64,000 nucleotides of DNA from Nitrospirota bacterium (lineage in GTDB: Bacteria > Nitrospirota > Thermodesulfovibrionia > Thermodesulfovibrionales > UBA9159): NCBI GenBank assembly GCA_037441365.1, contig JBBISG010000001.1, positions 18,961 through 82,960 of the forward strand. Reading direction: 5' to 3'. Both the position numbers and the translations under genes were made by a program. Of the stretch, positions 43,087 to 56,282 are shown piece by piece (position 1 is the first letter of the stretch; each line of letters starts with the position of its first letter). The notes under the pieces are model-generated. The model did no database searches, was not told where the DNA came from, and saw nothing but the letters and a program-made list of their open reading frames with translations.

Positions 43087-43385
43087 CCTGATAAAATCAT
43101 AGTTTTACCAGCCCCGGTTGTCAAGGACTATCTTGGCCTGGGTATTTAAAACAACAGGGTCGAAACTCGATCTGCCTGAACAAAACTGTTTAACCCGCAC
43201 AAGAACATTAAGAACATCAGCAAATTTCCATAATGAAACATCACTATTCCATATAGAAAAGCCAAATATCCTATTTTCCCCTGAAGATAATTTAATTATT
43301 AAGGCTTTACGTATTGGCATATATCTTGATAATCATTAGATTGTTCAATTAACACAAGAACAATAGTTTTATGGTAGCGGAAAAT

Positions 43386-43424: not shown

Positions 43425-43624
43425 TCCGGATGTCAGGGTCTTTAGCTGTGCTGGATTCCAGTTCAGGGGGGGCAGCTTCTATATTATTGAACGGACTAAT
43501 CTGATAAAAAGGGAGGTGATGGGAGTGAAAATTATAAGTGTAATATTGTAACTACAGTAGTAGTGGGAGTGGTTTTTCTCAGAAACTTAGTTTAAATTAA
43601 ATATTTTTGAAAGGGGAGGTTAAT

Positions 43625-45166
43625 ATGGGTATAACAAGAAGAAGTTTGTTGAAAGGAGGAGTTGCAGGAGCAATTGTGGCAGGCATCGGCTCTAAATTGG
43701 GTCTCGGTGGTTCTTCGTTAGGCGTAGGAAGGGCTGAGGCTGCGATCTTTGGGGAACCGACATTTCAGGATGTATTTAAACAATTTGGAAAATATATTTA
43801 CCTTGTCCCAGGGAAGTTTGCTGGATTAGTTGCAGCATATGATATGTCCACCGGTGAATGTCTTGCCTTCTTGAACTTTTCTAACTGGGCAGGGAATAGG
43901 ACTCCTATTCCGCACCATATTGCTGCCTTTGCATCTCCAGATCCGTACAAGGAATTTGAGTTTATACTTGACTCCCAGGGTGGTAAAAACCTTTACATAT
44001 ACGGGATACCAACTTCAGTAAAGGAACCTGCAGAGGGATTCAATATCTGGAGGATCAAATACGACGGAACCAAGATGGAGATTCTCGAAGACGTTGCCGA
44101 GACAACAGGAATTGGCCTTGGTGTTCATGTAAACGTTGCACCGGATAATCATCGTTTTGCTGTTGCTGATGGGCAAAAGGACATTTTTGCTATATTCAGA
44201 AAAGGTGAAGGAAGGAGTCATTCAAGTGTGGAAGCTGCTGTATTCTTTGACTGGGAATATAACAACTCGGAACTCTCAAGGGCATGGAGCGATGGCGGAA
44301 CACTAAGAATCAGAAAACTGCACCCACCTTATGATCTTAAAGGATTGAAAGGGCTAAAGCTTGATTGGGAGCTTGTTCCAGGCGGTGAGCTCTTCGCAGA
44401 ACAGGGAAAGGTTCCAGGGCCGAGAGTAAAGCATGCCGTGGCATTGGACTCCGTATGCTGGGATGCTCATAACAAAAATTATGCGATTGCCGCCCTTAGA
44501 CTACCTGGATGTGCGGTTGTCTTTGATACAAAGACATGGGAACCGAGGGCAATTTGTGTTGGAAGTGAGAAGTTTGCAAAACAAGATTACCAGATTCCAT
44601 TGAATAAAGTATCATCAGATGAATGGACAGCAAAGTTCCCATTTGTGCCAACACCTGCCCACCAAGCAGGGTATAATCCGACAGGGGATCGTATGATAGT
44701 GATGAACAACGCAAAAGAGAATATAATGGCGGTGTTTGACACTTCAAACCAAAAAGATCCGACAACATGGAAAAGAATCGCAGGACTTGGAGACCCTTCA
44801 TGGAGAGGAGCATACCCTAACCCGTTCCACATGGCCTTTACACCTGACGGAAAGAAAATGGCCTTTACACTCTGGTGGCCTACCCCAACCACAAACGGTA
44901 TTGCCATAGTGGATACACGCAACTGGAAGATTATAAAGACGATTAATATTGGACCAGATACTCATACAGTTGCATATACATATGACGGAAAGTGGCTAAT
45001 TGGCGTCTATAGCGGCTACCAGAAAACAAAGTGCGGGTTATATGTAATACGCGCAAAGGATGATAAATTTTACGGGTATCTGCCAAGCCCCCTCGGACAC
45101 CACGACTCCTGCATTGTACCCAGAACACTTAAAGATTTGGCTATTTCTCGCTGTACAACAACATAA
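43625..45166 (+). CDS. Tat-exported His-motif beta-propeller protein (NosZ CuZ-domain / thiocyanate-dehydrogenase-like; function unproven)
   Basis: GGGGAGG RBS. MGITRRSLLKGG twin-arginine signal ending AEA. Recurrent His motifs IPHHIA, GVHVNV, PAHQAGY, NPFHMAF, DTHTVAY and LGHHDSC. YVTN-like blade sequence. No cupredoxin/CuA tail. Confidence 0.6.
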   Translation: MGITRRSLLKGGVAGAIVAGIGSKLGLGGSSLGVGRAEAAIFGEPTFQDVFKQFGKYIYLVPGKFAGLVAAYDMSTGECLAFLNFSNWAGNRTPIPHHIAAFASPDPYKEFEFILDSQGGKNLYIYGIPTSVKEPAEGFNIWRIKYDGTKMEILEDVAETTGIGLGVHVNVAPDNHRFAVADGQKDIFAIFRKGEGRSHSSVEAAVFFDWEYNNSELSRAWSDGGTLRIRKLHPPYDLKGLKGLKLDWELVPGGELFAEQGKVPGPRVKHAVALDSVCWDAHNKNYAIAALRLPGCAVVFDTKTWEPRAICVGSEKFAKQDYQIPLNKVSSDEWTAKFPFVPTPAHQAGYNPTGDRMIVMNNAKENIMAVFDTSNQKDPTTWKRIAGLGDPSWRGAYPNPFHMAFTPDGKKMAFTLWWPTPTTNGIAIVDTRNWKIIKTINIGPDTHTVAYTYDGKWLIGVYSGYQKTKCGLYVIRAKDDKFYGYLPSPLGHHDSCIVPRTLKDLAISRCTTT

Positions 45167-45190
45167 AAAGTAGACAAGTCGATTTTACAT

Positions 45191-45216
45191 CCCTGGGGGA
45201 GTAATCTCCCTCAGGG
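45191..45216 (+). other. Hairpin after the propeller gene (possible attenuator or RNA-processing site)
   Basis: ccctgggggag-taat-ctccctcaggg, an 11-bp stem with 1 mismatch and no T-run. Confidence 0.3.
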
Positions 45217-45257
45217 ACACTTGAACCTTAAAACAAAAGAAGGAGCGAAGGTCTATA

Positions 45258-46472
45258 ATGGTCACATCCCTATCAAGACTTGCCTACCAGAACCTCCAGG
45301 TGAAGCACCTGAGGCTTTATATCATACTTATTGGCGTAAGTATAGTAATAGGGGTATTATTTGCAAGCTCTATCTTGATTGCCGGAATATACTATAGCCT
45401 TGAGAGGGGGCTCTCGAAGCTGGGTGCAGATCTCTTAGTAATTCCAAAGGAGTCCCTTGTCAATCTTAAATCTGCACTATTGACAGGAGAGCCCTCCACC
45501 TTTTACATGGATAGGTCTGTCCTTGAAGAAATACGTACCTTAAAGGGTATTAAGAAGGCCTCGGGTCAGGTATTCCTTACAAGTGCAACAGGGGATTGCT
45601 GTGTGGTCGGTAACTCCTTTCTGATCGGTTTTGATCCGTCCAATGACTTTACAGTAATGCCGTGGGTAGTTAAAAAAATGGGCGACTCTTTTCCCGATGA
45701 TGGGGCGATCGTAGGTGGAATGTTACCGTGGAACTTAGGCGACAGGCTTAAGTTCTTCGGGGTTCCTCTAACAGTTTGGGGACAGCTTGAAAGGACAGGT
45801 ATAGGTCTTTATGATAATGCAGTATTCTTTCATATAAAAAAGGCGTATGAGATGTCAGAAAAATCCCAAACCGATCCATCTATTCAGCCACTAAAGCCCT
45901 TCAAAGACAAGATATCAGGTGTGTTGGTGCAGCTTTCTGTAGGGGCTAAAATACCATTCATCACCTTTTCTATTCTGAAAGGCCATCCTGAACTTAAGGT
46001 CGTAACTACAGGAAATATCCAGACATCAGCACGCCAGACAACCGTTGCGGTATTCTTTGGTGTGATGGTCTTGATAGTTGTGCTGGTCTTGTCAAATGTG
46101 CTGATGATCAATGCAATATTCTCTGCTGTGGTAAATGAAAGGAGAAGGGAGTTAGGCATAATGAGGGCGATAGGTGCAACAAAGAACTCCATATTCAAAC
46201 TTATTGTTTATGAATCGACAATGGTTACATTACTCAGCGGATTGTTAGGAATGATCGTGGGCGGGATTCTTCTAAAAATCTTCCACAGGACGATCATATT
46301 TTACCTGAGACTCCTCAATATCCCATTTATGCTTCCACCGGTTGAGATCATTGCAGGATTAGCTCTGTTAGCCATAATCATGGCCTTTATAATGGGTATT
46401 AGCGGTTCAACATATCCTGCTCTCGTGGCAATAAGGATAGACCCTCACGAGACCATGAAACAGGGGTTATAA
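45258..46472 (+). CDS. MacB/LolC-type ABC permease (FtsX domain), paralog 1
   Basis: 404 aa. TM1, a large periplasmic domain (contains a CC pair, SATGDCCVVG), and a C-terminal FtsX three-TM module (ERRRELGIMRAIGAT). Confidence 0.8.
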   Translation: MVTSLSRLAYQNLQVKHLRLYIILIGVSIVIGVLFASSILIAGIYYSLERGLSKLGADLLVIPKESLVNLKSALLTGEPSTFYMDRSVLEEIRTLKGIKKASGQVFLTSATGDCCVVGNSFLIGFDPSNDFTVMPWVVKKMGDSFPDDGAIVGGMLPWNLGDRLKFFGVPLTVWGQLERTGIGLYDNAVFFHIKKAYEMSEKSQTDPSIQPLKPFKDKISGVLVQLSVGAKIPFITFSILKGHPELKVVTTGNIQTSARQTTVAVFFGVMVLIVVLVLSNVLMINAIFSAVVNERRRELGIMRAIGATKNSIFKLIVYESTMVTLLSGLLGMIVGGILLKIFHRTIIFYLRLLNIPFMLPPVEIIAGLALLAIIMAFIMGISGSTYPALVAIRIDPHETMKQGL

Positions 46473-47198
46473 ATGGATGGATTTATTCAGGCAATTGAAT
46501 TACAGAAGATTTATCATGTCGGTAACCAAAAAATAGAGGCGGTAAAAGGGGTAAGCCTTCAGGTCCCGAGGGGAGACTTTATTGTAATACTTGGGCACTC
46601 AGGTTCAGGCAAAACAACCCTTATAAGCATGATAGGAGGTCTGACTCGTCCATCTCTGGGCAAGGTCTATATAGAAGGTATTGACCTTTGGGATCTCGGG
46701 GATAAAGAGCTTTCCCGCTTCAGGAACAAAAAAATTGGGTTTATCTTTCAATCTTTCAGCCTTTTACCGTCCCTGAATGTATTAAATAATGTTCTCATGC
46801 CTGTTATATTCAGCAAAAAAGCAAAAAAAGACAGAAAGGCATTGCAATCTAAAGCACACTCAATCCTCTCTGACCTTAATATGGCTGATAAGCTGAATTC
46901 CTACCCTTCCGAACTATCAGGTGGAGAACAGAGAAGGGTAGCGATAGCAAGGTCACTGATAAATGACCCTGATATAATACTTGCCGATGAACCAACAGGA
47001 GAACTGGATATACGAACTGAACATGAGGTGATAGAGATATTCCGAAACATAAATGAAGTATATAAAAAGACGATAATAGTCGTCAGCCACAGCCTATCAT
47101 GGATGCAGAAGGCAAAGAAGGTGATTGTAATGAAAGATGGACTCGTTCAGAGGGATATTGCTGACCCTGTTGAAATACTTATGGGTGGACATAAGTAA
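46473..47198 (+). CDS. ABC transporter ATP-binding protein (LolD/MacB type)
   Basis: Walker A GHSGSGKTTL, signature LSGGEQRRVAIARS, Walker B ILADEPTGELD. Confidence 0.9.
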   Translation: MDGFIQAIELQKIYHVGNQKIEAVKGVSLQVPRGDFIVILGHSGSGKTTLISMIGGLTRPSLGKVYIEGIDLWDLGDKELSRFRNKKIGFIFQSFSLLPSLNVLNNVLMPVIFSKKAKKDRKALQSKAHSILSDLNMADKLNSYPSELSGGEQRRVAIARSLINDPDIILADEPTGELDIRTEHEVIEIFRNINEVYKKTIIVVSHSLSWMQKAKKVIVMKDGLVQRDIADPVEILMGGHK

Positions 47199-47204
47199 AA
47201 GAAT

Positions 47205-48467
47205 ATGAGGGTGTTCAGGCTTGCCATAAAAGAACTAATAAGGAGACCTCAAAGGAATGCCTTGCTTATGCTGGCTATAGTGGTGTCCATAGCCCTGATT
47301 ACTTCTCTAACAATAGTAGGCAACTCTGCAAATAAAACGATCCTCGAGGTTATAGCAAAAACAGGTCATACACTTACCGTTAAGCCAGCTATAACAGAAG
47401 AGAACGCAACATCTTTAGGTAACCTGACCACCACGGAAGTTGTCATAGGGAAATATATACCAGAGACGGTCATCCCGGAGATAAAAAAACTCTATGATAA
47501 GGCCATACAATCAGGCTGGGAAAAGAGAGGAACTCTCCTGACAAGTATTGGGAGTATAGAGAAGGAAATCAGGATCGAACCACCCACATGGGCCCCAAGG
47601 CTTTATGAGAAGGTAAGGTTTAAAGATAAAGATATAATAGTTGCAGGGGTAGAATTCGACAAGGAATACTTCGTGCGGTTCTGGTGGAATCTCTCAAGCG
47701 GCGAATGGCCGACTGATGCGACACGACTGAGGGAAGTCCATGAGGATGAAGCATTGATTGGTGGTTCCCTATCAACAGCCCTTGGATATAAAACAGGCGA
47801 CAGGATAACTATAAATAACATGGAGTTAAGAATATTAGGTGTGCTTGAGGAGACCAACTCTCCAGATGACTATATGTTATTCATTCCGTTAAAGACCGCC
47901 CAGAAGATATTCAATAAAAAGGGTCTTGTTTCATTATTGAGCGTAAGAGCCATGTGCCCTCAATGTCCTGTAGGAGATGCCATGGTAGAACTAAACAAGA
48001 CAATAACTGGGATAACTGCTGTATCACAACTTGATGTTGCGCAGGTTCAGTTCGATTTCTTTAACATGCTTTATAAATTCCTCCTGGCAGTTATCATATC
48101 AACTATTGCTGTGGGTATATTCTCTATATTCAATACTGTCACAGGATCCCTGTATGCCAGGGTCAGGGAGATCGGGATGCTAAAGGCAGTAGGGGCTTCA
48201 GGATTCCAGCTTTTGAGGATATTCCTCTACGAACAGTTAATCCTGGGGTTAACCGCAGGGATTGTGGGATATACAGTGGGCATTGGGCTTGCTTATATCT
48301 TAAATTCCCTCCTCGGGATAAAAGCGATAATAAAGCTTAATCCCGAATATATCTGGAGAGCCTTGATATTCGGGGTCATCTGTAGCCTTGCAGCGATAAT
48401 CTACCCTGCCTATAAACTCTCAAAGATCAAGATAACAGAGACCTTCAGAACCCAATGGGAGATCTAA
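47205..48467 (+). CDS. MacB/LolC-type ABC permease, paralog 2 (periplasmic CPQCP motif)
   Basis: 420 aa with the same architecture. CxxC (RAMCPQCPVGD) in the periplasmic domain. C-terminus ...KLSKIKITETFRTQWEI. Confidence 0.8.
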   Translation: MRVFRLAIKELIRRPQRNALLMLAIVVSIALITSLTIVGNSANKTILEVIAKTGHTLTVKPAITEENATSLGNLTTTEVVIGKYIPETVIPEIKKLYDKAIQSGWEKRGTLLTSIGSIEKEIRIEPPTWAPRLYEKVRFKDKDIIVAGVEFDKEYFVRFWWNLSSGEWPTDATRLREVHEDEALIGGSLSTALGYKTGDRITINNMELRILGVLEETNSPDDYMLFIPLKTAQKIFNKKGLVSLLSVRAMCPQCPVGDAMVELNKTITGITAVSQLDVAQVQFDFFNMLYKFLLAVIISTIAVGIFSIFNTVTGSLYARVREIGMLKAVGASGFQLLRIFLYEQLILGLTAGIVGYTVGIGLAYILNSLLGIKAIIKLNPEYIWRALIFGVICSLAAIIYPAYKLSKIKITETFRTQWEI

Positions 48468-48468
48468 A

Positions 48469-49659
48469 ATGGATATTCTATCCCTGGCTATAAAAGACAT
48501 CATGAGGCGAAAAGGAAAATCTATCTACATGCTTATAGCTGTTGTTATGCCTGTCGCCATTCTTAGTACTATCATATCAACTATTAGTAATGCTGATACA
48601 TCTCTATCTAATCTTGCATCGAAATTTGGTTTCACCATAATGATCCAGCCGAAGAGCATAAGCACTGACAGGATCGATCAGTTAGGGGTGGTCGTGGATG
48701 AATATATCTCTGAGGCATCTATTATATCTGTAAAGGAGATAATAATGCGAATTCTTCAGACCGACAAAGACCCAATAATCATGGCGCCACGGCTTTATAT
48801 AAAAACCGAGATTAATAGTAAAAACTCACGGACAACTTCAATATTGGCAGGGATAGATTTTAAGGCCGAATTAGATGCAAGACCTTCGTGGAATCTCATA
48901 GAAGGTAGATGGCCTGAAAGGGACTACGAAGCAGTTGCTGGAAGGGCACTTGCCAGGGTATTAAAACTGTCTTCGGGAGATTATGTGACCATCAATAATA
49001 AAGGGTTCAATATCGTAGGCATTTTCAAAGAGCACAACTCGCCTGAGGACCATATGGTCTTTGCATTTCTCGGAACAGCACAACAAATCTTCGGGAAAAA
49101 GGGGCTGGTATCGGTTATAAATCTTCAGAATGTATCACTGGACAGAGATGAGAGGCTACTCCGTTTAACAATAGAGGAGTTAAATAGAGGCATCCCTAAT
49201 ATAAAGGCCCTTTCACCTCAGCAATTCAGCACAATGAAATATATAATGCTAAAAAAGACATTCAAATTTCTGATCTCCATTGTCATTGCAACAGTTATCA
49301 TCAGCATCTTTTCGATATTTAATATCGTAACCTCATCATTATATTCGAGGGTAAGAGAGATAGGACTGTTGAAATCAGCAGGTGCATCGTGGTCGCAACT
49401 CTTCAAGCTGTTCCTCTATGAATACCTTATCATAGGACTTGCTGGCGGTATGGTCGGATATTCCATCGGCATATTAATGACTTACCTATTGGATTCATTC
49501 CTTCTAAAGATCGGATCAGGAATAAGAATAAACATAATGCTGTTTGTGGTTACATTGTTTATAGGTATTTTATGTAGTCTATTGTCAAGTTTTTACCCTA
49601 CCTACAAGCTCTCAAAGATAAAAATAACCGAGACCTTTAGAACGCAATGGGAGGTATGA
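48469..49659 (+). CDS. MacB/LolC-type ABC permease, paralog 3
   Basis: 396 aa. C-terminus KLSKIKITETFRTQWEV is nearly identical to paralog 2. No periplasmic Cys. Confidence 0.8.
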   Translation: MDILSLAIKDIMRRKGKSIYMLIAVVMPVAILSTIISTISNADTSLSNLASKFGFTIMIQPKSISTDRIDQLGVVVDEYISEASIISVKEIIMRILQTDKDPIIMAPRLYIKTEINSKNSRTTSILAGIDFKAELDARPSWNLIEGRWPERDYEAVAGRALARVLKLSSGDYVTINNKGFNIVGIFKEHNSPEDHMVFAFLGTAQQIFGKKGLVSVINLQNVSLDRDERLLRLTIEELNRGIPNIKALSPQQFSTMKYIMLKKTFKFLISIVIATVIISIFSIFNIVTSSLYSRVREIGLLKSAGASWSQLFKLFLYEYLIIGLAGGMVGYSIGILMTYLLDSFLLKIGSGIRINIMLFVVTLFIGILCSLLSSFYPTYKLSKIKITETFRTQWEV

Positions 49660-50400
49660 ATGAACAGGGATATTGTCATTGAAAGACCCCTCTTAGAACT
49701 GAAGAGTGTGACAAAGATATTCAATACCGACGCAGGTGATGTAGTAGCCCTCCAAGATGTCTCGTTAACCCTCAGCAAGGGGGAACTAATAGCATTAGTA
49801 GGCCCGAGTGGTTCTGGTAAGACGACGCTCCTCAATATAATGGGGGCCCTTGATAGACCGACGAGGGGTGAGGTATGGCTTGAGGACATTCGTATCGACG
49901 TTCTCTCAGAGCAGCAACTCGTTAATTTCAGGCGAGAGAAATTCAGTTTTGTCTTTCAGGATGCAAGACCGCTCAGGATGCTAAATGTCCTTGAAAATAC
50001 CCTTCTGCCTTTTAATTTCTTTAAACCCAGAAATAACTCGAAAAATATAAAGGAAGAGGCTATAAAAATAATAAAATCTCTGGGTTTGGAACACAGGGTC
50101 TACCATATGCCAAACCAGCTAAGCGGTGGTGAAAATCAAAGAGTTGCAATTGCGCGGGCATTAATAACAAAGCCTTCGATGATCCTGGCAGATGAACCAA
50201 CAGCCAATCTTGACAGAGAAAACAGACTCTTTGTGATAAAAACCTTTAGAAGACTAACCGAGGAAAAGGGGATTACTGTCGTAGTTTCAACGCATGATCT
50301 TGAGATAGCAAATTTTGCGGATAGAATAGCATATTTAAAGGATGGTGTTCTTTTAAATATCAACCCCCGGATTGTCCACCCACCGATAATTCTGCGCTAA
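49660..50400 (+). CDS. ABC transporter ATP-binding protein (second copy)
   Basis: GPSGSGKTTLL, LSGGENQRVAIARAL and ILADEPTANLD motifs. Confidence 0.9.
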   Translation: MNRDIVIERPLLELKSVTKIFNTDAGDVVALQDVSLTLSKGELIALVGPSGSGKTTLLNIMGALDRPTRGEVWLEDIRIDVLSEQQLVNFRREKFSFVFQDARPLRMLNVLENTLLPFNFFKPRNNSKNIKEEAIKIIKSLGLEHRVYHMPNQLSGGENQRVAIARALITKPSMILADEPTANLDRENRLFVIKTFRRLTEEKGITVVVSTHDLEIANFADRIAYLKDGVLLNINPRIVHPPIILR

Positions 50401-50430
50401 ACAATCAGCCTCTGCCGGGGAGAGGTAGCA

Positions 50431-51096
50431 GTGAAGTACTTTAAAGGGATTGGAAAGAAAAAATTAGTTTTATATTTTGCAGGCATAATTGTAGTTGTTC
50501 TTATCACTGATTTCTTTATTGGCAAAAGGCAACAGGCAATTATTGACGAAAGGGAGACAAAGATCAAAAGGCTCGAGAGGCAGGCATTCTACATGCTTTC
50601 TGCCGAGATTCGTGACATAAAGGAGACGGATAATATCAAAAAGACAGGAAGATACGAGGCATTGCTAAGGATAGATAATGTTGCTAATGAACCTGTATAT
50701 ATATCCCATCCACACATAAAGGCTTACATACAGACAGGAGAAATTTCATGGTCAGAGGTCCCTGTTCAGGATACGGAACCCCATAAAACAAGGCAGGTAT
50801 ATAAGATCGAACCAGAGAGCTATATCTTTTATAAAAAATGGATAACAGTTAACAGATCTATACCATATAACAAAAACCTTTTGCCTGAGTACATGCATGT
50901 AAGGTTTCATATATCCATGTATGTATTGCCTGAAAGTGGATTCAAAGGCGATGATGTTGTAGAACGGAAATCAACTACATATGTCTATCTCAAACCATAC
51001 TTTGTGAGCGACAAGGAGATCAGGAAGGCAATCGACTTTGGGGATACAAAGGTCCCCGTTTACATACCTATAACGGCTTTTAGGATATGGAAATAA
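50431..51096 (+). CDS. Membrane-anchored protein of unknown function, tandem paralog A
   Basis: 221 aa. GTG start with GGAGAGG RBS, N-terminal TM, charged helix, then a beta-rich domain with EPVYISHPHIKAYIQTG and YMHVRFHIS. Confidence 0.65.
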   Translation: MKYFKGIGKKKLVLYFAGIIVVVLITDFFIGKRQQAIIDERETKIKRLERQAFYMLSAEIRDIKETDNIKKTGRYEALLRIDNVANEPVYISHPHIKAYIQTGEISWSEVPVQDTEPHKTRQVYKIEPESYIFYKKWITVNRSIPYNKNLLPEYMHVRFHISMYVLPESGFKGDDVVERKSTTYVYLKPYFVSDKEIRKAIDFGDTKVPVYIPITAFRIWK

Positions 51097-51111
51097 GTGA
51101 GAGGGAAAGAA

Positions 51112-51756
51112 ATGAAAGGTTACTCAATGATAGCCAGAAAAAGAAAGGCAATAACGGTTATCTTTGGAATATTACTTCTCCTTTTCCTTGTTGACCAGTA
51201 TATCGGTAGTAAAGAGAGGGCGATCATCCGTGAAAGAGAAGCAAAGAGGGAAAGGCTCGAGAAGCTTGCCTTCTTTATGATCTTCCCTGATATAAGTGAT
51301 GTAAAAGACATAAAGGATAAGCCGGAAAAGTATGAGGCAATAATAAAAGTAGAAAATTTAACCGATGAACCTGTATATATCACACATCCTGAAGTCAAGG
51401 CATACGTGCAAACAGGCACATTCTGGACAGAAGTGCCAGTTCATGAAGACAAAAATGAAAAGAAAGAGCAGATATACAGACTTGATCATGGCATACATCT
51501 TTATAAAAAGGTCATAACCATAAACCGCAATATTAAGTATACCTATTATATGATGCCCTATTATATGCATGTGAGGTTTCACATCTCCTTCTTCGTATTA
51601 CCTGAGAGCGCATTTAAAGAGGAGGAGGTTGTAGAGAGATATACCGATGTATATATCTACCTGAAACCTTATTTTGTTAATAAAGAACTAATTTCTAAGG
51701 AACTCAAATTTCCTGATAATAAGGTACCGGTCATGATACCAATGCCGCCACATTAA
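51112..51756 (+). CDS. Membrane-anchored protein of unknown function, tandem paralog B
   Basis: Colinear with paralog A (EPVYITHPEVKAYVQTG, YMHVRFHIS, VLPESAFK, YLKPYFV). Start ATG 51112, or GTG 51097. Confidence 0.65.
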   Translation: MKGYSMIARKRKAITVIFGILLLLFLVDQYIGSKERAIIREREAKRERLEKLAFFMIFPDISDVKDIKDKPEKYEAIIKVENLTDEPVYITHPEVKAYVQTGTFWTEVPVHEDKNEKKEQIYRLDHGIHLYKKVITINRNIKYTYYMMPYYMHVRFHISFFVLPESAFKEEEVVERYTDVYIYLKPYFVNKELISKELKFPDNKVPVMIPMPPH

Positions 51757-51785
51757 TTTATAAATAAAACCAGTAGGAGGTTAAG

Positions 51786-52205
51786 ATGAAAAAATGTGTT
51801 TATAATTGCACGGTAGCAATCAGTGTAATGCTGATCCTGATATTAACTTCTATCCTATACGCATTCGATAAGAAACAGGTAGTTACAGAACAAGGGTTCT
51901 ATCTCTTAACAGTAGAGGCTGTAACAAAGCCGATCAGGGTTGGCAAGAATACGTTTAAAATAATGACCGCTGACAGCAAGACAGGAAAGCCTGTTGGAGA
52001 AAAACTTGCCATAGAGGTTATCCCATGGATGCCAAAGCATGAACATGGGGTAACCGAGATGCCGATTATCAAAGAGATTGCGAAGGGAGTATATATTATG
52101 GAAGGAGTGAATTTCAGCATGCCTGGAGATTGGGAGGTATATATAAGAATAAAAAAGAATGGAAAAGAGGATACGGGTGTTTTTGATGTGAAGGTTGTTA
52201 AGTAG
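51786..52205 (+). CDS. YtkA/FixH-like Ig-fold periplasmic protein (candidate metallochaperone)
   Basis: 139 aa. N-terminal anchor or signal, then the pattern VGKNTFKI...D..TGKPV......V.PWMPKHEHG......G.Y......FSMPGDWEV.I typical of YtkA-like domains with Met/His sites. Confidence 0.6.
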   Translation: MKKCVYNCTVAISVMLILILTSILYAFDKKQVVTEQGFYLLTVEAVTKPIRVGKNTFKIMTADSKTGKPVGEKLAIEVIPWMPKHEHGVTEMPIIKEIAKGVYIMEGVNFSMPGDWEVYIRIKKNGKEDTGVFDVKVVK

Positions 52206-52216
52206 GAATCAAGGTA

Positions 52217-52298
52217 AAGGGTCAGGTCTACACACTTGTGTGCAAAGTCAATTGAAGTAAAGGTCAGGTTTACACACAAGTGTGTAGACCTGACCCTT
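52217..52298. repeat. Perfect 26-bp inverted repeat with a third direct half-site
   Basis: aagggtcaggtctacacacttgtgtg (52217-52242) is the exact reverse complement of 52273-52298. The 30-nt spacer carries aaggtcaggttta, a degenerate direct copy of the arm's first 14 nt (one gap, one mismatch); it continues into cacac in the right arm. Confidence 0.9.
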
Positions 52299-52360
52299 GC
52301 CCCTATAAAATTATCAAAGTTGAAAGGAAAATACAAAAGACCTCTTAAGGGTCACTGGCA

Positions 52361-52870
52361 ATGAAACTAAGAACTTCTAAAGTAAAGGTTTTTATATTAT
52401 TCTTTCCAATTCTCTTCAGTACAGCAATTAACTCTGATCGTGTATATACAAAGGCGAATGGCAATAGATATATAAATGTTACGATAAAGGATATTTTTTA
52501 TCGAGGGAATGAGGATTATGAAGTGAGAATACTCCTTATTAACAAAACCGATAAGTCAGTTTCAATTGATGAACTCGAATGTAAGTTTTATATTCAGACC
52601 GAAATTATCGGTCAGTGGAGAGAATTGAAGGGCAGAGGGCTGAACCCTCAGGGTTTCGTTCTGTCCGCTTCGCAAAAAGAGATTCAGACACTTATAAACA
52701 TCCCTATTGAGAATGTGTATAGAAACTTTGAAGGCGATATTAATCTGTTATTCACATACAGAGTAATCTTCCACATTAAAGGGTCGTCTAAAGACCTTAT
52801 TGATTCTGGAGAGTTTTTTTATTGGTTAAGACCGAAAACAAACATATGGATCCTCAGGGAGGGTATGTAA
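52361..52870 (+). CDS. Secreted protein of unknown function (distant relative of the 50.4-51.7 kb paralogs)
   Basis: 169 aa with a signal peptide. Motifs LINKTDKSVSIDEL..KFYIQTE are colinear with NxxxEPVYIxHP..KAYxQTG. Confidence 0.55.
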   Translation: MKLRTSKVKVFILFFPILFSTAINSDRVYTKANGNRYINVTIKDIFYRGNEDYEVRILLINKTDKSVSIDELECKFYIQTEIIGQWRELKGRGLNPQGFVLSASQKEIQTLINIPIENVYRNFEGDINLLFTYRVIFHIKGSSKDLIDSGEFFYWLRPKTNIWILREGM

Positions 52871-53193
52871 TGAAAATTAAGAAGAGGAAAAAAAACTGCT
52901 GGGAAGTTATGAAGTGCGGCAGAGAGCCAGGAGGGCAAAAAGTAAAAGAACTCGGGGTATGTCCTGTCCCGCTTTATGATCACCTGAACGGCGCTCATGG
53001 TGGTATTAATGCGGGAAGGGTTTGCTGGATAGTTGCCGGAACTATGTGTGGAGGTGAGATTGAGGGTAGTTTTGCAAAAAAATACGAAGATTGCAGAAAG
53101 TGCCCATTTTATCAACTCGTAAGAAATGAAGAAGGAGATCAATTTCTTATCACAGGTGATCTTATAAAATGGTTCTCAGAAAAAGATAAATAA
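52870..53193 (+). CDS. Cys-rich 'two-CW'-like domain protein
   Basis: 107 aa from ATG 52870, which overlaps the previous stop (TAATG). NCWEVMKCGRE...RVCWIVAGTMCGGE...CRKCPFY, 8 Cys in total. Confidence 0.6.
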   Translation: MKIKKRKKNCWEVMKCGREPGGQKVKELGVCPVPLYDHLNGAHGGINAGRVCWIVAGTMCGGEIEGSFAKKYEDCRKCPFYQLVRNEEGDQFLITGDLIKWFSEKDK

Positions 53194-54567
53194 TCAACTT
53201 ATGTCGTACTTCTTCATCTTCCTCCAGAGTGTTGTCCTGCCTATTCCGAGCTCTTTGCACACTTTGGTAAGGTTATGGGAGTGCTTTTCAATAGTTTTCA
53301 CCAGCAAATCCCTTTCCCATTCTTCAAATGTTTTTGGTCCGCCATAGTCATCAGACTGCGATTCCTGTACATTAAACAGCTGCACCGTAAAGCCAAGAGC
53401 TAAATCTTCTTTCTTTATAAGTGAGTCCTGACATAACGCCGCTGCACGCCATATGATGTTCTGGAGTTCTCTTATATTTCCATGATAATCGTGAGTATAC
53501 AAAAAGTCGAGGGCACCATTAGAGAACTTAAGGTCAGGCCTGCTAAGCTCTTTTTTGCAGGGATCAAGAAAATACTGGGCAAGTAGCGGGATGTCCTCTT
53601 TATGCTCTCGAAGAGGTGGTAGGTGTATACGGATTACATTTATCCTATAGTAAAGGTCCTCTCGAAATCTTCCTTCTTTTACAGCATGTTCGAGGTCTGT
53701 ATTTGTGGCAGCCAATATCCTGACATCTATTCTTTTGCTCTTATTACTGCCTACTCTTCGGATATGTCGATCTTGCAAAACATCAAGAAGTTTTGTTTGT
53801 ATAGTGATTGGCATACTACCTATTTCATCTAATAAAATAGACCCCTCATCTGCCTCTTCTATCAATCCTTTTCTTTCAAGATATGCTCCTGTAAAAGCCC
53901 CACGAATATGTCCGAATAATTCACTTTCGAATAAATTTTCTGGTACTGCAGCACAGTTTATAGAGATAAATGGCTTGTTAGCCCTTTTACTGAGGGCATG
54001 AATGGTCTTAGCCGCTAAGGTCTTTCCCGTGCCTGTCTCGCCTGTAATTAATACGGGTAGATCAACTTCTGATGCCTTCTTTATAAGAGACACCACAGCC
54101 TGAACCTGTCTGCTTTTGCCAATAAACGGAAGGTTTTCTCCCTCTCTTTTATAACTATTCAAAAATGAATCAATATCCCTTTTGTCATAAACATTGTTAA
54201 TAGCCTTTCTCACCCTGTGAAGGATCTCTTCATACTTGAAAGGCTTTGAGATATAGTCAAAGGCGCCCATCTTCATAGCAAGCACAGCAGACTCAACCGT
54301 GCCATATCCTGTCATTATGATTACCTCTGTAGAAGGATACCTCTCTTTAACATACAGAAGAAGATCAAGCCCTGTGCCTGGTGACATCTTGAGATCGGCA
54401 ATAACAGCATCAAAATGATCTTTGGCGAGAAGTTCGATAGCCTGTTCTCCATTTTCTGCTTCCTCCGCTAAAAAGCCAGCCTTCTTAAGGAGTATCGAGA
54501 GGCTTCTCCTCATTCCTGCCTGATCATCTACTATAAGAATTTTGTGCGTCAATGCCGTTGTAACCAA
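53194..54567 (-). CDS. Sigma-54-dependent response regulator (NtrC/AtoC family)
   Basis: 457 aa. REC domain (D in AVIADLKM), AAA+ domain with GETGTGK and GAFTGA, C-terminal Fis-type HTH. Confidence 0.92.
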   Translation of the reverse strand: MVTTALTHKILIVDDQAGMRRSLSILLKKAGFLAEEAENGEQAIELLAKDHFDAVIADLKMSPGTGLDLLLYVKERYPSTEVIIMTGYGTVESAVLAMKMGAFDYISKPFKYEEILHRVRKAINNVYDKRDIDSFLNSYKREGENLPFIGKSRQVQAVVSLIKKASEVDLPVLITGETGTGKTLAAKTIHALSKRANKPFISINCAAVPENLFESELFGHIRGAFTGAYLERKGLIEEADEGSILLDEIGSMPITIQTKLLDVLQDRHIRRVGSNKSKRIDVRILAATNTDLEHAVKEGRFREDLYYRINVIRIHLPPLREHKEDIPLLAQYFLDPCKKELSRPDLKFSNGALDFLYTHDYHGNIRELQNIIWRAAALCQDSLIKKEDLALGFTVQLFNVQESQSDDYGGPKTFEEWERDLLVKTIEKHSHNLTKVCKELGIGRTTLWRKMKKYDIS

Positions 54568-56282
54568 GGCTCCTCTGTGTCTTTTAAAAATGTTTTCTCA
54601 CCAATAATAACAGGTAAATGTAATATCACCGTTGTCCCCTCCCCAACCTTGCTCGATACCGTTATGTATCCACCATGTTCATGAACAATTTTCTGTGCAA
54701 TATTAAGCCCGATGCCGAGCCCCTTTTCTTTTGTGGTGAAGAAAGGCTCAAATGCACGAGAAATGGTCTCTGGAGACATCCCTACCCCTGAGTCCTCGAC
54801 CACCAATTCTACTTCACTTTCCAGTGGTTTATACCTTGTGCTGATGATCAAATCCCCTCCGTCTGGCATTGACTCTATCGAATTCAGAAAAATATTCAGC
54901 AGAGCCTGTTTGATATAGTTTCTATCAGTCAGAAGCATCGGAATGTCAGGATCAAAGAATTTAACAATCCTTACCCCAGACTCCTTCTTGTCAAGATGTA
55001 ATAAAGAAAAGACATCTTCTACTATAGAATGAATGTTTGTCTCAGTCTTTTTTAGTCTAAAAGACCTTGAAAAAGAAAGAAAGTCCTCGGTAAGTTTATT
55101 TAATCTTTCGAGTTCGGTTTCCACTATATAAATAAGTTCCAATTCGTCTGAACTGTACGACCCACACCTCTTTAAGACCTCTACTGAATTTGTAATTGCT
55201 CCTAAAGGATTTCTTATCTCATGAGCCAAAGCGGCTGCCATCTTACCCATTGATGCGAGCTTCTCGGATTCTTTCAGACGTTTTTGTGTTTCCTTTAATC
55301 TTTCATAAGCATCCATAATTTCAATATTCTTCTTTTTTATTGTTTCAATCAATTCTGTTAATTTAGCTCGGGATTTGTTAAGTCTAAAAAGTGTCTGCAT
55401 GAAACCATAAACCAGCCCTAACAGAAGACCTGTAGCTATGAGCACCTTTATAAAATGCCAATACCACCATACAGGATCCCACAATTTTGAAAAGACAAAT
55501 GATAGCTCACTCCCAAATAAGAGTAACGCCGCTGTAGCAAAGATTTGGTAAATTACATCGTTACTTTGCAGAAATCCCCTGATAAAGGTTAGGCCCGCTA
55601 TTAAGAAAAATATACTGGACAGAAAATTTATGCAATAAATAACATAGCTGAATTGGCCCTTTGCCATGGTCACAGGGGTATGATGCGGTAAGTGTGTTAC
55701 GAGAGCATCCGGTATAAGATAGTAAAATCTAATAGAAAGTAAAGCAAAAACAACTATTAAAGTAACCCCCAGAAGTATGTAGAACTTCCTTTTTAAAAGG
55801 GCATAACTGTTATTGTCATCGTTATTCTTCTCCACAATTAAAAGTGATAAGAAGAAAAATAAAGATCCAAAAAAGGCCCCGGATGAATGGAACCACACAA
55901 ACATGTTATGGCAGTATTCAGAAAAGGCATGGAAAAAATCGAGGATCCCCATAGAGAAAAAAGCGAAAGTAAGGAAGAGACTTTTTGCCTTACCAGAAGA
56001 AAGATATTCCAATGATAAAATTAGTCCGATAATAATAGATATCAATGCATAAAATGCTTCAAGAAATGAATGTGTTGGAGCGTTCACCCAGAAGGTATGT
56101 TCACTAAAGAAACTTTTGATAAAAAACTTGCTTAAAGGGATGAGTCCGACAATAATAATAGCTCCGAATGTTAATATAACAAGCCATCTCTTTATCGAAT
56201 CAGATATATTCTTAATGGTCTCATCAACAGTAAAATTTATGTTGTGCAGTAGTGGTTGTTTGAGATTTAAAGAAGCAAACAC
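54549..56282 (-). CDS. Sensor histidine kinase with a polytopic membrane sensor domain
   Basis: 577 aa. About 8 TM helices, coiled coil, H-box AHEIRNPL, HATPase (DSGVGM, GLGIGL). Overlaps the regulator gene by 19 nt. Confidence 0.9.
   Translation of the reverse strand: MFASLNLKQPLLHNINFTVDETIKNISDSIKRWLVILTFGAIIIVGLIPLSKFFIKSFFSEHTFWVNAPTHSFLEAFYALISIIIGLILSLEYLSSGKAKSLFLTFAFFSMGILDFFHAFSEYCHNMFVWFHSSGAFFGSLFFFLSLLIVEKNNDDNNSYALLKRKFYILLGVTLIVVFALLSIRFYYLIPDALVTHLPHHTPVTMAKGQFSYVIYCINFLSSIFFLIAGLTFIRGFLQSNDVIYQIFATAALLLFGSELSFVFSKLWDPVWWYWHFIKVLIATGLLLGLVYGFMQTLFRLNKSRAKLTELIETIKKKNIEIMDAYERLKETQKRLKESEKLASMGKMAAALAHEIRNPLGAITNSVEVLKRCGSYSSDELELIYIVETELERLNKLTEDFLSFSRSFRLKKTETNIHSIVEDVFSLLHLDKKESGVRIVKFFDPDIPMLLTDRNYIKQALLNIFLNSIESMPDGGDLIISTRYKPLESEVELVVEDSGVGMSPETISRAFEPFFTTKEKGLGIGLNIAQKIVHEHGGYITVSSKVGEGTTVILHLPVIIGEKTFLKDTEEPWLQRH

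Follow-up and report, generated by a model that had tools for sequence, protein, structure and literature searches.

Thiocyanate dehydrogenase locus and proteins A, B, and C

We analyzed a 64,000-nucleotide (nt) stretch of the genome of a Nitrospirota bacterium (GenBank assembly GCA_037441365.1, contig JBBISG010000001.1, positions 18,961 to 82,960), hereafter the window, in which the genes of three proteins, A, B, and C, lie downstream of a thiocyanate dehydrogenase (TcDH) gene and a set of ATP-binding cassette (ABC) genes. TcDH (43607 to 45166; plus strand, as for all features below unless stated) carries a twin-arginine translocation (Tat) signal, and it matched PDB entry 8q9x with an E value of 3e-177 and the entries 5f75 and 6uwe, named "thiocyanate dehydrogenase," with E values of about 1e-163. 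Going by these sequence matches, the upstream "propeller" is TcDH, a trinuclear-copper enzyme; the initial annotation of this DNA had recognized neither this identity nor the published status of A and B as "hypothetical proteins." TcDH is followed by the FtsX/MacB-type permease 1 (45258 to 46472), which scored above the cut-off for Pfam FtsX (1.7e-18) and, for MacB_PCD, under the 27-bit cut-off (6.6e-5, 23.7 bits), and which has Cys114-Cys115 in its periplasmic part. ABC ATPase 1 (46473 to 47198), assigned by synteny, is of the type fused to a B-type protein in other lineages. Two further FtsX/MacB-type permeases matched both domains, with MacB_PCD above its cut-off, namely, permease 2 (47205 to 48467; FtsX, 6.7e-18; MacB_PCD, 9.6e-17) and permease 3 (48469 to 49659; FtsX, 1.2e-18; MacB_PCD, 4.9e-8), the latter being also supported by synteny and limited to close (>69% identical) Nitrospirota TcDH loci. 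The LolD/FtsE/MacB-like ABC ATPase 2 (49660 to 50400; synteny) lies directly upstream of A, and its best NCBIfam match was LolD (2.1e-60; 204 bits, under the 307.75-bit equivalog cut-off), followed by the FtsE and MacB models.

The gene of protein A (50431 to 51096; 221 amino acids [aa]) starts 30 nt past the stop codon of ATPase 2 and is followed by that of protein B (51112 to 51756; 214 aa). The two proteins aligned end to end with 47% identity and 71% positives (E = 2e-61), and they are paralogues, as the initial annotation had read by eye; the shared blocks that it had listed (EPVYI.HP, W.EVPV, YMHVRFHIS, VLPES.FK, and YLKPYF) were all seen in the alignments. Both N termini are rich in Lys and Arg and continue into a single hydrophobic segment (Kyte-Doolittle mean of 2.66 for residues 12 to 30 of A and 2.28 for B), in line with the N-terminal transmembrane (TM) segment and charged helix that had been described for them. 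A public protein collection contains identical 221-, 214-, and 169-aa sequences for A, B, and C, and since the identical B sequence is among public gene calls, the ATG at 51112 was confirmed as the start in use for B. Antisense open reading frames (ORFs) in 51120 to 51582, on the opposite strand and contained within B, were taken as shadows of that gene.

Searches of Pfam, NCBIfam, and PDB sequences with A, B, C, and the family profiles, and of Pfam with 26 diverse members, returned no match, and the view that A and B belong to no known family was thereby borne out. A word-indexed search with A yielded 77 homologues, all at least 44% identical, from Nitrospirota and unnamed, while a profile search of 1.84 billion representative proteins gave 120 hits at an E value of ≤1e-3. 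The family profile matched proteins of proteobacterial and Thioalkalivibrio clusters with E values from 1e-20 to 1e-38, compared with 1e-107 for A and 8e-94 for B. The family is rare but real.

We then examined 23 TcDH loci from GTDB genomes, whose six-frame ORFs were searched with the family profile, the genomes being scanned from TcDH towards the family. Nineteen of these loci extend beyond the ABC genes, and all 19 carry a single family gene or a pair of them directly after the last ATPase gene; they came from Nitrospirota, Thioploca, Sulfuritalea, Zoogloeaceae, Burkholderiaceae, Thioalkalivibrio, and an Obscuribacterales metagenome-assembled genome; Thioalkalivibrio thiocyanoxidans ARh2 has a single family copy, as published. 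A metagenome scan seeded with family members confirmed no fewer than 480 loci, and 80 of them (L024 to L103) were retained. A TcDH homologue was present in the recovered DNA of 52 of these 80 loci and in 22 of the 22 with enough DNA on both sides. The linkage of the family to TcDH and FtsX/MacB-type ABC genes is strict in both data sets, and the genomic association with ABC and propeller genes on which the initial annotation had let its proposal depend thus held. Permease 1 was found in every TcDH locus, and the conserved core of each such locus consists of the enzyme, an FtsX permease, an ATPase, and a family protein. The commonest form in metagenomes is a minimal module comprising FtsX, an ATPase::B fusion, and TcDH. 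In 17 soil loci (L061:7182-7850 and 16 others), the gene directly upstream of the minimal-module FtsX gene encodes a membrane protein with a C-terminal DnaJ-like domain, which Pfam DnaJ matched only weakly and under its gathering score (9.3e-5).

ATPase fusion, conserved residues, and fold

Of the 80 metagenome loci, 66 have the family domain, in its B-type form, as the C-terminal part of an ABC ATPase ORF. The fused ORF encodes a complete ABC ATPase, a disordered linker of 45 to 95 residues, one TM helix, a stalk, the sandwich, and an ..IPMPPH end, in this order, and the nucleotide-binding domains (NBDs) of all 66 scored higher with the ATPase 1 profile than with the ATPase 2 profile. Gene callers likewise report fused proteins of 434 to 486 aa with an N-terminal Pfam ABC_tran domain, and a complete NBD with Walker A and LSGGQ was present in 11 of the 42 representatives having a full-length family domain. 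The NBD fusion shows that the N terminus of the family protein is cytoplasmic and its sandwich periplasmic, and that the protein functions in physical association with the ABC transporter. Thus, the tie to the ABC machine that the initial annotation had suggested from gene position is now shown by both strict synteny and fusion.

The 80 kept metagenome loci are biased towards one subclade, soil-type B proteins, and the IPMPPH search pattern, and motif frequencies were therefore taken from the unbiased exhaustive protein search. Across 158 non-identical domains from three sources, four residues are invariant (B numbering): Gln100, Trp105, His153 of the Y-M-H motif (Y151-M152-H153, nt 51562 to 51570), and Pro206; the corresponding residues of A are Q101, W107, H156, and P209. 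The family has no conserved Cys. Protein B ends with PMPPH (M-P-P-H-COOH, nt 51742 to 51753), and an MP[PSA]H-COOH end was found in 64 of the 120 representatives and in 57 of the 66 whose match reaches the C terminus. Protein A has an A-type tail, ..PITAFRIWK. A-type copies (tails ..FRNW or ..RAWTL) and B-type copies both occur in Nitrospirota and in Proteobacteria, which indicates that the A/B duplication is old. The B type is the universal subtype, being the sole copy in T. thiocyanoxidans and in all fusions.

The AlphaFold2 (AF2) model of A (mean pLDDT of 88.7) shows a continuous helix from residue 9 to 55, in which the TM segment (residues 12 to 30) passes into a charged stalk of about 25 residues ending near residue 55, followed by a beta-sandwich (residues 56 to 187). 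According to the models, the family protein is a bitopic inner-membrane protein in which a single TM helix continues as a helical stalk (about 25 residues), with a nine-strand Ig-like sandwich in the periplasm and a conserved short tail. Foldseek searches of the PDB with the models of A and C returned generic Ig-like sandwiches only (TM-scores of 0.25 to 0.57), including LEA-2 (1yyc), a FixG-related protein (2r39), MSP/VAP, GAE, the Kir C-terminal domain, and ApaG, and the lists for A and C overlapped. The top match, 1yyc (LEA-2/WHy), had an E value of 3.8e-5, TM-scores of 0.31/0.37, and a root mean square deviation of 10.7 Å, with many unrelated Ig-like folds scoring equally, and Pfam LEA_2 did not match A, B, C, or the 26 diverse members. 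All these matches being generic, none was accepted as a family assignment.

Protein C (52361 to 52870; 169 aa) has a signal peptide and is a secreted, anchor-less, diverged sandwich paralogue. Its pairwise similarity to A and B was marginal (E values of 3e-3 and 2e-4 over 30 to 45 residues), and the initial annotation had described it as a weaker, colinear third copy. Profile comparison confirmed this relationship: hhalign of 10 C-type against 40 A/B-type sequences gave a probability of 93.3% (E = 2.8e-7, 109 columns), and a second run with independent alignments gave 90.4% (E = 1.4e-6, 122 columns), while the control against the neighboring Ig-like YtkA family gave 0.8% for A/B and 6% for C. 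The C-family invariants Y53, N61, Q79, G84, and W86 map with equal spacing to Y75, N83, Q101, G103, and W107 of A/B, five residues with a conservation of 85% or more across the broad A/B family, and the AF2 models of A and C have an identical succession of nine strands, the core of C being modeled at a pLDDT of >90. At the profile level, C is related to A/B as a diverged copy of the sandwich alone, with no anchor. It retains the family Gln and Trp; since it has Asn at the position of the family His and a C terminus different from that of B-type proteins, it is a diverged relative rather than a regular family member. The C family was found only in Nitrospirota, and C may be a soluble partner of the YtkA-like protein encoded beside it. 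The extreme C terminus of this family is invariant as well (W-x-L-R-E-G-M-COOH; residues 165 to 169 of C correspond to window positions 52853 to 52867), which parallels the invariant MPxH-COOH end of the B-type proteins.

In six proteobacterial loci (L012:16780-17358 and five more, among them L021:15985-16536), a gene 3' of the B gene encodes a lipoprotein of about 190 aa with an invariant YHDDATD. It was considered as the counterpart of C and rejected, as the hhalign probability was 1.5 to 3.9%; it has no Pfam family and no relation to A, B, or C detectable by hhalign (<4%), and the published clusters probably list it as their second "hypothetical protein." The locus of Candidatus Sulfobium (L007:16807-19386 and L007:7013-7495) has the B gene in two ORFs through a frameshift or an assembly error, two YtkA-like genes in tandem, and a second C-type gene upstream of TcDH.

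Copper-related and regulatory genes of the clusters

Between B and C, the window encodes a YtkA/CtaK-like protein (51786 to 52205; Pfam YtkA, 1.1e-14), a candidate copper chaperone with a conserved W-M-P-x-H-E-H-G motif, which is also present in other Nitrospirota loci. Its M82 and H87 are invariant, and H85 and M112 are conserved in 8 and 9 of 11 sequences, respectively. CtaK, which has a YtkA domain, has been implicated in CuA assembly (PMC13344008). Other lineages have other copper proteins near TcDH: SCO1/SenC (Pfam, 2.4e-48) was found in seven proteobacterial loci and PCuAC (9.5e-34) in five, adjoining TcDH in betaproteobacterial and Thioploca loci (e.g., L015:8364-9020 and L015:9010-9510, both on the minus strand), and CopC/CopD lie beside TcDH in Thioalkalivibrio (L021:7733-9388, minus strand), as published for TcDH clusters of this genus (PMC5328954). 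Different copper chaperones are recruited in each lineage around a constant core of TcDH, FtsX-ABC, and the family protein.

The permeases were examined for conserved residues as well. In permease 2, periplasmic His55 and Met250-Cys251-x-x-Cys254 are invariant in 18 of 18 FtsX2 orthologues from Nitrospirota and Proteobacteria; the latter motif, Met-Cys-Pro-Gln-Cys in the window (residues 250 to 254, positions 47952 to 47966), lies in the periplasmic domain, and together with His55 it resembles a CxxC site of the Cu(I) or redox type on an ABC permease. In permease 1, Cys115 is present in 21 of 22 sequences and residue 114 is Cys or His (window positions 45597 to 45602). The corresponding FtsX1 loop of the soil minimal modules is Met/His rich (e.g., MSGMPEH and SAGHSHE) or deleted, and other Cys/His columns appear.

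As to the enzyme, His103, His104, His174, His352, His408, and Asp281 are invariant in 59 family-linked TcDH homologues, and His498 and His499 are His wherever the sequence is present. These residues, together with His453, are those we take to be the copper ligands from the Thioalkalivibrio paradoxus structure. The residue aligned to His453 of the window is Gln in 36 of the 59 homologues, mostly from soil minimal modules (e.g., L061:10660-12495), and this group may consist of copper enzymes resembling TcDH whose site is modified or whose substrate differs.

Downstream of C, a Cys-rich cytoplasmic protein with a two-CW domain (52822 to 53193; NCBIfam NF045718, 2.6e-32; no signal peptide) is encoded. 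This protein occurs in nine Nitrospirota TcDH loci beside the sigma-54 regulator, with eight Cys and one His conserved. As listed, the ORF and the 3' end of C overlap; the ATG at 52870, itself overlapping the C stop codon, is the probable true start. On the minus strand follow a sigma-54-type response regulator (53194 to 54567), identified from its translation and conserved beside the cluster, and a membrane histidine kinase (54549 to 56282), identified from its translation and synteny. This is the cluster published for Thioalkalivibrio, in which TcDH is accompanied by four ABC subunits, "two hypothetical proteins," and a two-component system of the sigma-54 type in the same arrangement (PMC5328954).

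No sigma-54 promoter was found upstream of TcDH at ≤1 mismatch, the window-wide count of this pattern being that expected by chance; a -24/-12-like sequence with two mismatches, TGGCAT-N5-TTGA, is located at 43315 to 43329, about 290 nt upstream of TcDH. Scans for sigma-70 promoters and terminators gave background levels. The G+C content of the TcDH cluster (window positions ~44000 to 56000) is 0.38 to 0.45, versus 0.46 to 0.50 on its flanks, and the upstream genes (OMP decarboxylase/HUMPS family, SIS domain, PsiE, M17 aminopeptidase, and MoeA) are unrelated housekeeping genes. The lower G+C content and the unrelated upstream genes suggest that the cluster is a horizontally acquired island.

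Proposed role of the A/B family

Taken together, strict synteny and ATPase fusion make the A/B family very probably a subunit of an ABC machine dedicated to TcDH. The best explanation of the data as a whole, to which we assign a probability of about 0.5, is that A and B are obligate subunits of a MacB/FtsX-type ABC machine serving Cu(I) delivery to TcDH; taken by itself, the step that the machine loads copper falls just short of even odds. ABC systems of the FtsX/MacB type (type VII, mechanotransmission), such as MacB, LolCDE, and FtsEX, do not carry substrates across the inner membrane, and the ATP-driven movement is passed to their periplasmic domains. In the TcDH machine, ATP hydrolysis by the ATPases would move the FtsX periplasmic domains, and a sandwich held by the TM helix and its stalk (about 25 residues) would stand level with them. 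The machine would act on periplasmic TcDH after Tat export, most likely by loading its three copper ions, with the anchored sandwiches serving as a docking or relay element for Cu(I) on its way to apo-TcDH. The Cu(I) donors would be lineage specific, i.e., YtkA here and Sco/PCuAC or CopCD elsewhere, and the candidate Cu(I) ligands would be the invariant His153 and Trp105, plus the Met/His tail of B (M211 and H214).

Recombinant TcDH needs copper reconstitution. The published cluster papers regard the assembly of the trinuclear copper center in the cell as an open question (PMC5744179). The T. thiocyanoxidans protein G372_RS0106345, which has a single N-terminal TM helix, was upregulated on thiocyanate with a logFC of 5.1, together with TcDH and the ABC genes, and the authors proposed no function for it (PMC5744179).

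A metal-handling role had been proposed in the initial annotation on the grounds of conserved His-rich patches. The His of Y-M-H is indeed invariant, but the histidines of HPH and the second His of MHVRFH vary freely across the family, so that the argument from these two patches fails, and a periplasmic accessory or metal-handling role is still the best reading. Several observations weigh against copper delivery. One invariant His alone does not make a metal site; the Met/His tail is missing from A-type proteins and from C, and the latter also carries Asn where the family has His. The structural matches of A and C are only generic Ig-like sandwiches, and the FtsX Cys motifs are not universal, being absent in soil minimal modules, and these cysteines could be disulfides or persulfide carriers. 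Furthermore, the published cluster work weighed the possibility that the ABC genes import copper, and signatures of metal binding were not found there (PMC5744179).

We also considered whether the machine handles the product of TcDH, since the enzyme yields cyanate and elemental sulfur (PMC9456337). Here, the ABC machine with A/B would clear or pass on the zero-valent sulfur, keeping the copper site free of sulfide, with FtsX cysteines as persulfide carriers, the sandwiches docking TcDH, and sulfur going to carriers or out of the periplasm. The invariant periplasmic CxxC of FtsX2 and the conserved Cys of FtsX1 would suit such a relay, type VII ABC systems (MacB, LolCDE, and FtsEX) do act on periplasmic or outer-leaflet substrates, and a strict linkage to TcDH, rather than to one copper chaperone, fits catalysis as well as assembly. 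However, the FtsX cysteines of soil minimal modules are either absent or replaced by Met/His-rich loops, a pattern that typifies Cu(I) ligands rather than a persulfide relay, and the A/B family itself has no conserved Cys to contribute. In addition, genes for copper chaperones (YtkA, Sco, PCuAC, and CopCD) recur in the clusters, whereas no sulfur-carrier gene was recognized among the selected neighboring ORFs scanned against Pfam. We therefore consider product handling unlikely.

A Bce-like signaling role, in which FtsX-ABC and A/B would sense thiocyanate, copper, or the TcDH load and report to the adjacent kinase and sigma-54 regulator, appears improbable. FtsX-type ABC transporters signal to kinases in Bce systems, and the two-CW Cys-rich protein adjoins the regulator in the TcDH clusters; however, the minimal module persists across the 80 metagenome loci with kinase or regulator matches to the cluster's own profiles in only 2 of them (L047 and L088), and signaling to this kinase thus cannot be the core function. 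The suggestion of the initial annotation that A/B substitute for MacA, bridging a MacB-type pump to an outer-membrane channel for efflux, is favored by their membrane anchor and periplasmic domain and by the lack of an HlyD-family adaptor gene beside the MacB-like permeases, and it can be largely set aside, because A, B, C, and the 26 diverse members have no HlyD, lipoyl, or alpha-hairpin domain in Pfam, a stalk of about 25 residues with one sandwich is, judged from its size, too short to reach an outer-membrane channel, no gene for such a channel was seen among the profile-annotated genes and recurrent neighbor clusters of the 103 loci (most neighbor ORFs being unscanned against Pfam and genes elsewhere in the genomes being possible), and ATPase fusion with a strict tie to one periplasmic enzyme is unlike a drug or toxin pump.

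Comparison with known systems and significance

The closest described relatives of A and B are the "hypothetical proteins" of Thioalkalivibrio (G372_RS0106345 of T. thiocyanoxidans ARh2; Berben et al. 2017; PMC5328954 and PMC5744179), which belong to the same family, as the A/B profile matched L021:15236-15982 with an E value of 3e-25. They share the place after the fourth ABC gene, the single N-terminal TM helix, and the co-induction with TcDH on thiocyanate; the window differs in having an A-type and a B-type protein, the diverged C, and a third permease. The genes themselves are hence not new, being drawn as "hypothetical" in the published TcDH cluster figures, but that work gave no family definition, fold, motif, or function for these proteins. 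In the literature searched, we found no description of the family definition, the ATPase fusion, the three-gene minimal module widespread in soil, the Gln-Trp-His-Pro residues with MPxH-COOH, or the relation of C to A/B.

In its logic, the cluster resembles NosDFY-NosL, where an ABC complex is encoded beside a Tat-exported multicopper beta-propeller enzyme, together with an accessory protein of the periplasm and a Cu(I) chaperone tethered to the membrane, and where the NosDFY ABC complex drives copper hand-over. NosL is the Cu(I) chaperone for the CuZ center of nitrous oxide reductase (PMC6530538 and PMC8457098). The two systems are nevertheless not homologous: NosY is not of the FtsX/MacB type, and NosD is a soluble beta-helix, in contrast to the TM-anchored Ig-like sandwich of A/B. 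Consistent with this, A, B, and C did not match the Nos families, including NosD, in Pfam, and their predicted fold is a sandwich and not a beta-helix.

LptC of LptB2FGC and MlaD of MlaFEDB also combine an N-terminal TM helix that joins the ABC TM domains with a periplasmic all-beta domain that handles the substrate, and the NBD fusion shows equally tight coupling in the TcDH family, although there is no sequence or specific fold match, the ABC type is another, and the presumed cargo here is not a lipid but a metal or an enzyme. The MacA/HlyD adaptors are likewise membrane-anchored periplasmic partners of FtsX/MacB-type permeases, but A/B are much shorter, lack HlyD-type domains, and are tied to one enzyme instead of efflux. 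Finally, YtkA/CtaK-FixH, PCuAC, and CusF are small periplasmic or anchored beta-sandwiches that hold Cu(I) via His, Met, or Trp, whereas the A/B pattern has one invariant His and Trp, with a Met-Pro-x-His tail in the B type only, all of which are candidate ligands; the hhalign probabilities for YtkA were 0.8 to 6%, and YtkA (PF13115) did not match A, B, or C in Pfam. A/B are a variant of a known theme, that of a bitopic ABC accessory subunit and of ABC-assisted maturation of a periplasmic copper enzyme.

A more far-reaching proposal, which we make only tentatively, is that the TcDH machine represents a new class of ATP-driven periplasmic metallocenter assembly machine, i.e., a type VII ABC system to which a further, bitopic subunit has been added, in many cases by fusion to the ATPase. 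In such a machine, Cu(I) would be held on the invariant His/Trp site and the Met-Pro-x-His-COOH tail and be delivered into the central tunnel of the TcDH propeller, where the trinuclear copper site would be built. If so, mechanotransmission ABC systems would include metal-cofactor insertion among their functions, and the soil minimal module would point to copper enzymes that form a large group not yet studied, in many of which Gln replaces one copper-ligand His.

The analysis turned two anonymous ORFs into a defined family with a fold, a topology, four invariant residues, a diagnostic C-terminal motif, and the ABC ATPase as a proven physical partner, and it provides a three-gene marker by which copper enzymes resembling TcDH can be spotted in metagenomes from soil. 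If the role in copper loading is true, the TcDH machine would be a second, independently evolved ABC-driven copper-insertion machine besides NosDFY, with a possible use in engineering strains for thiocyanate bioremediation.

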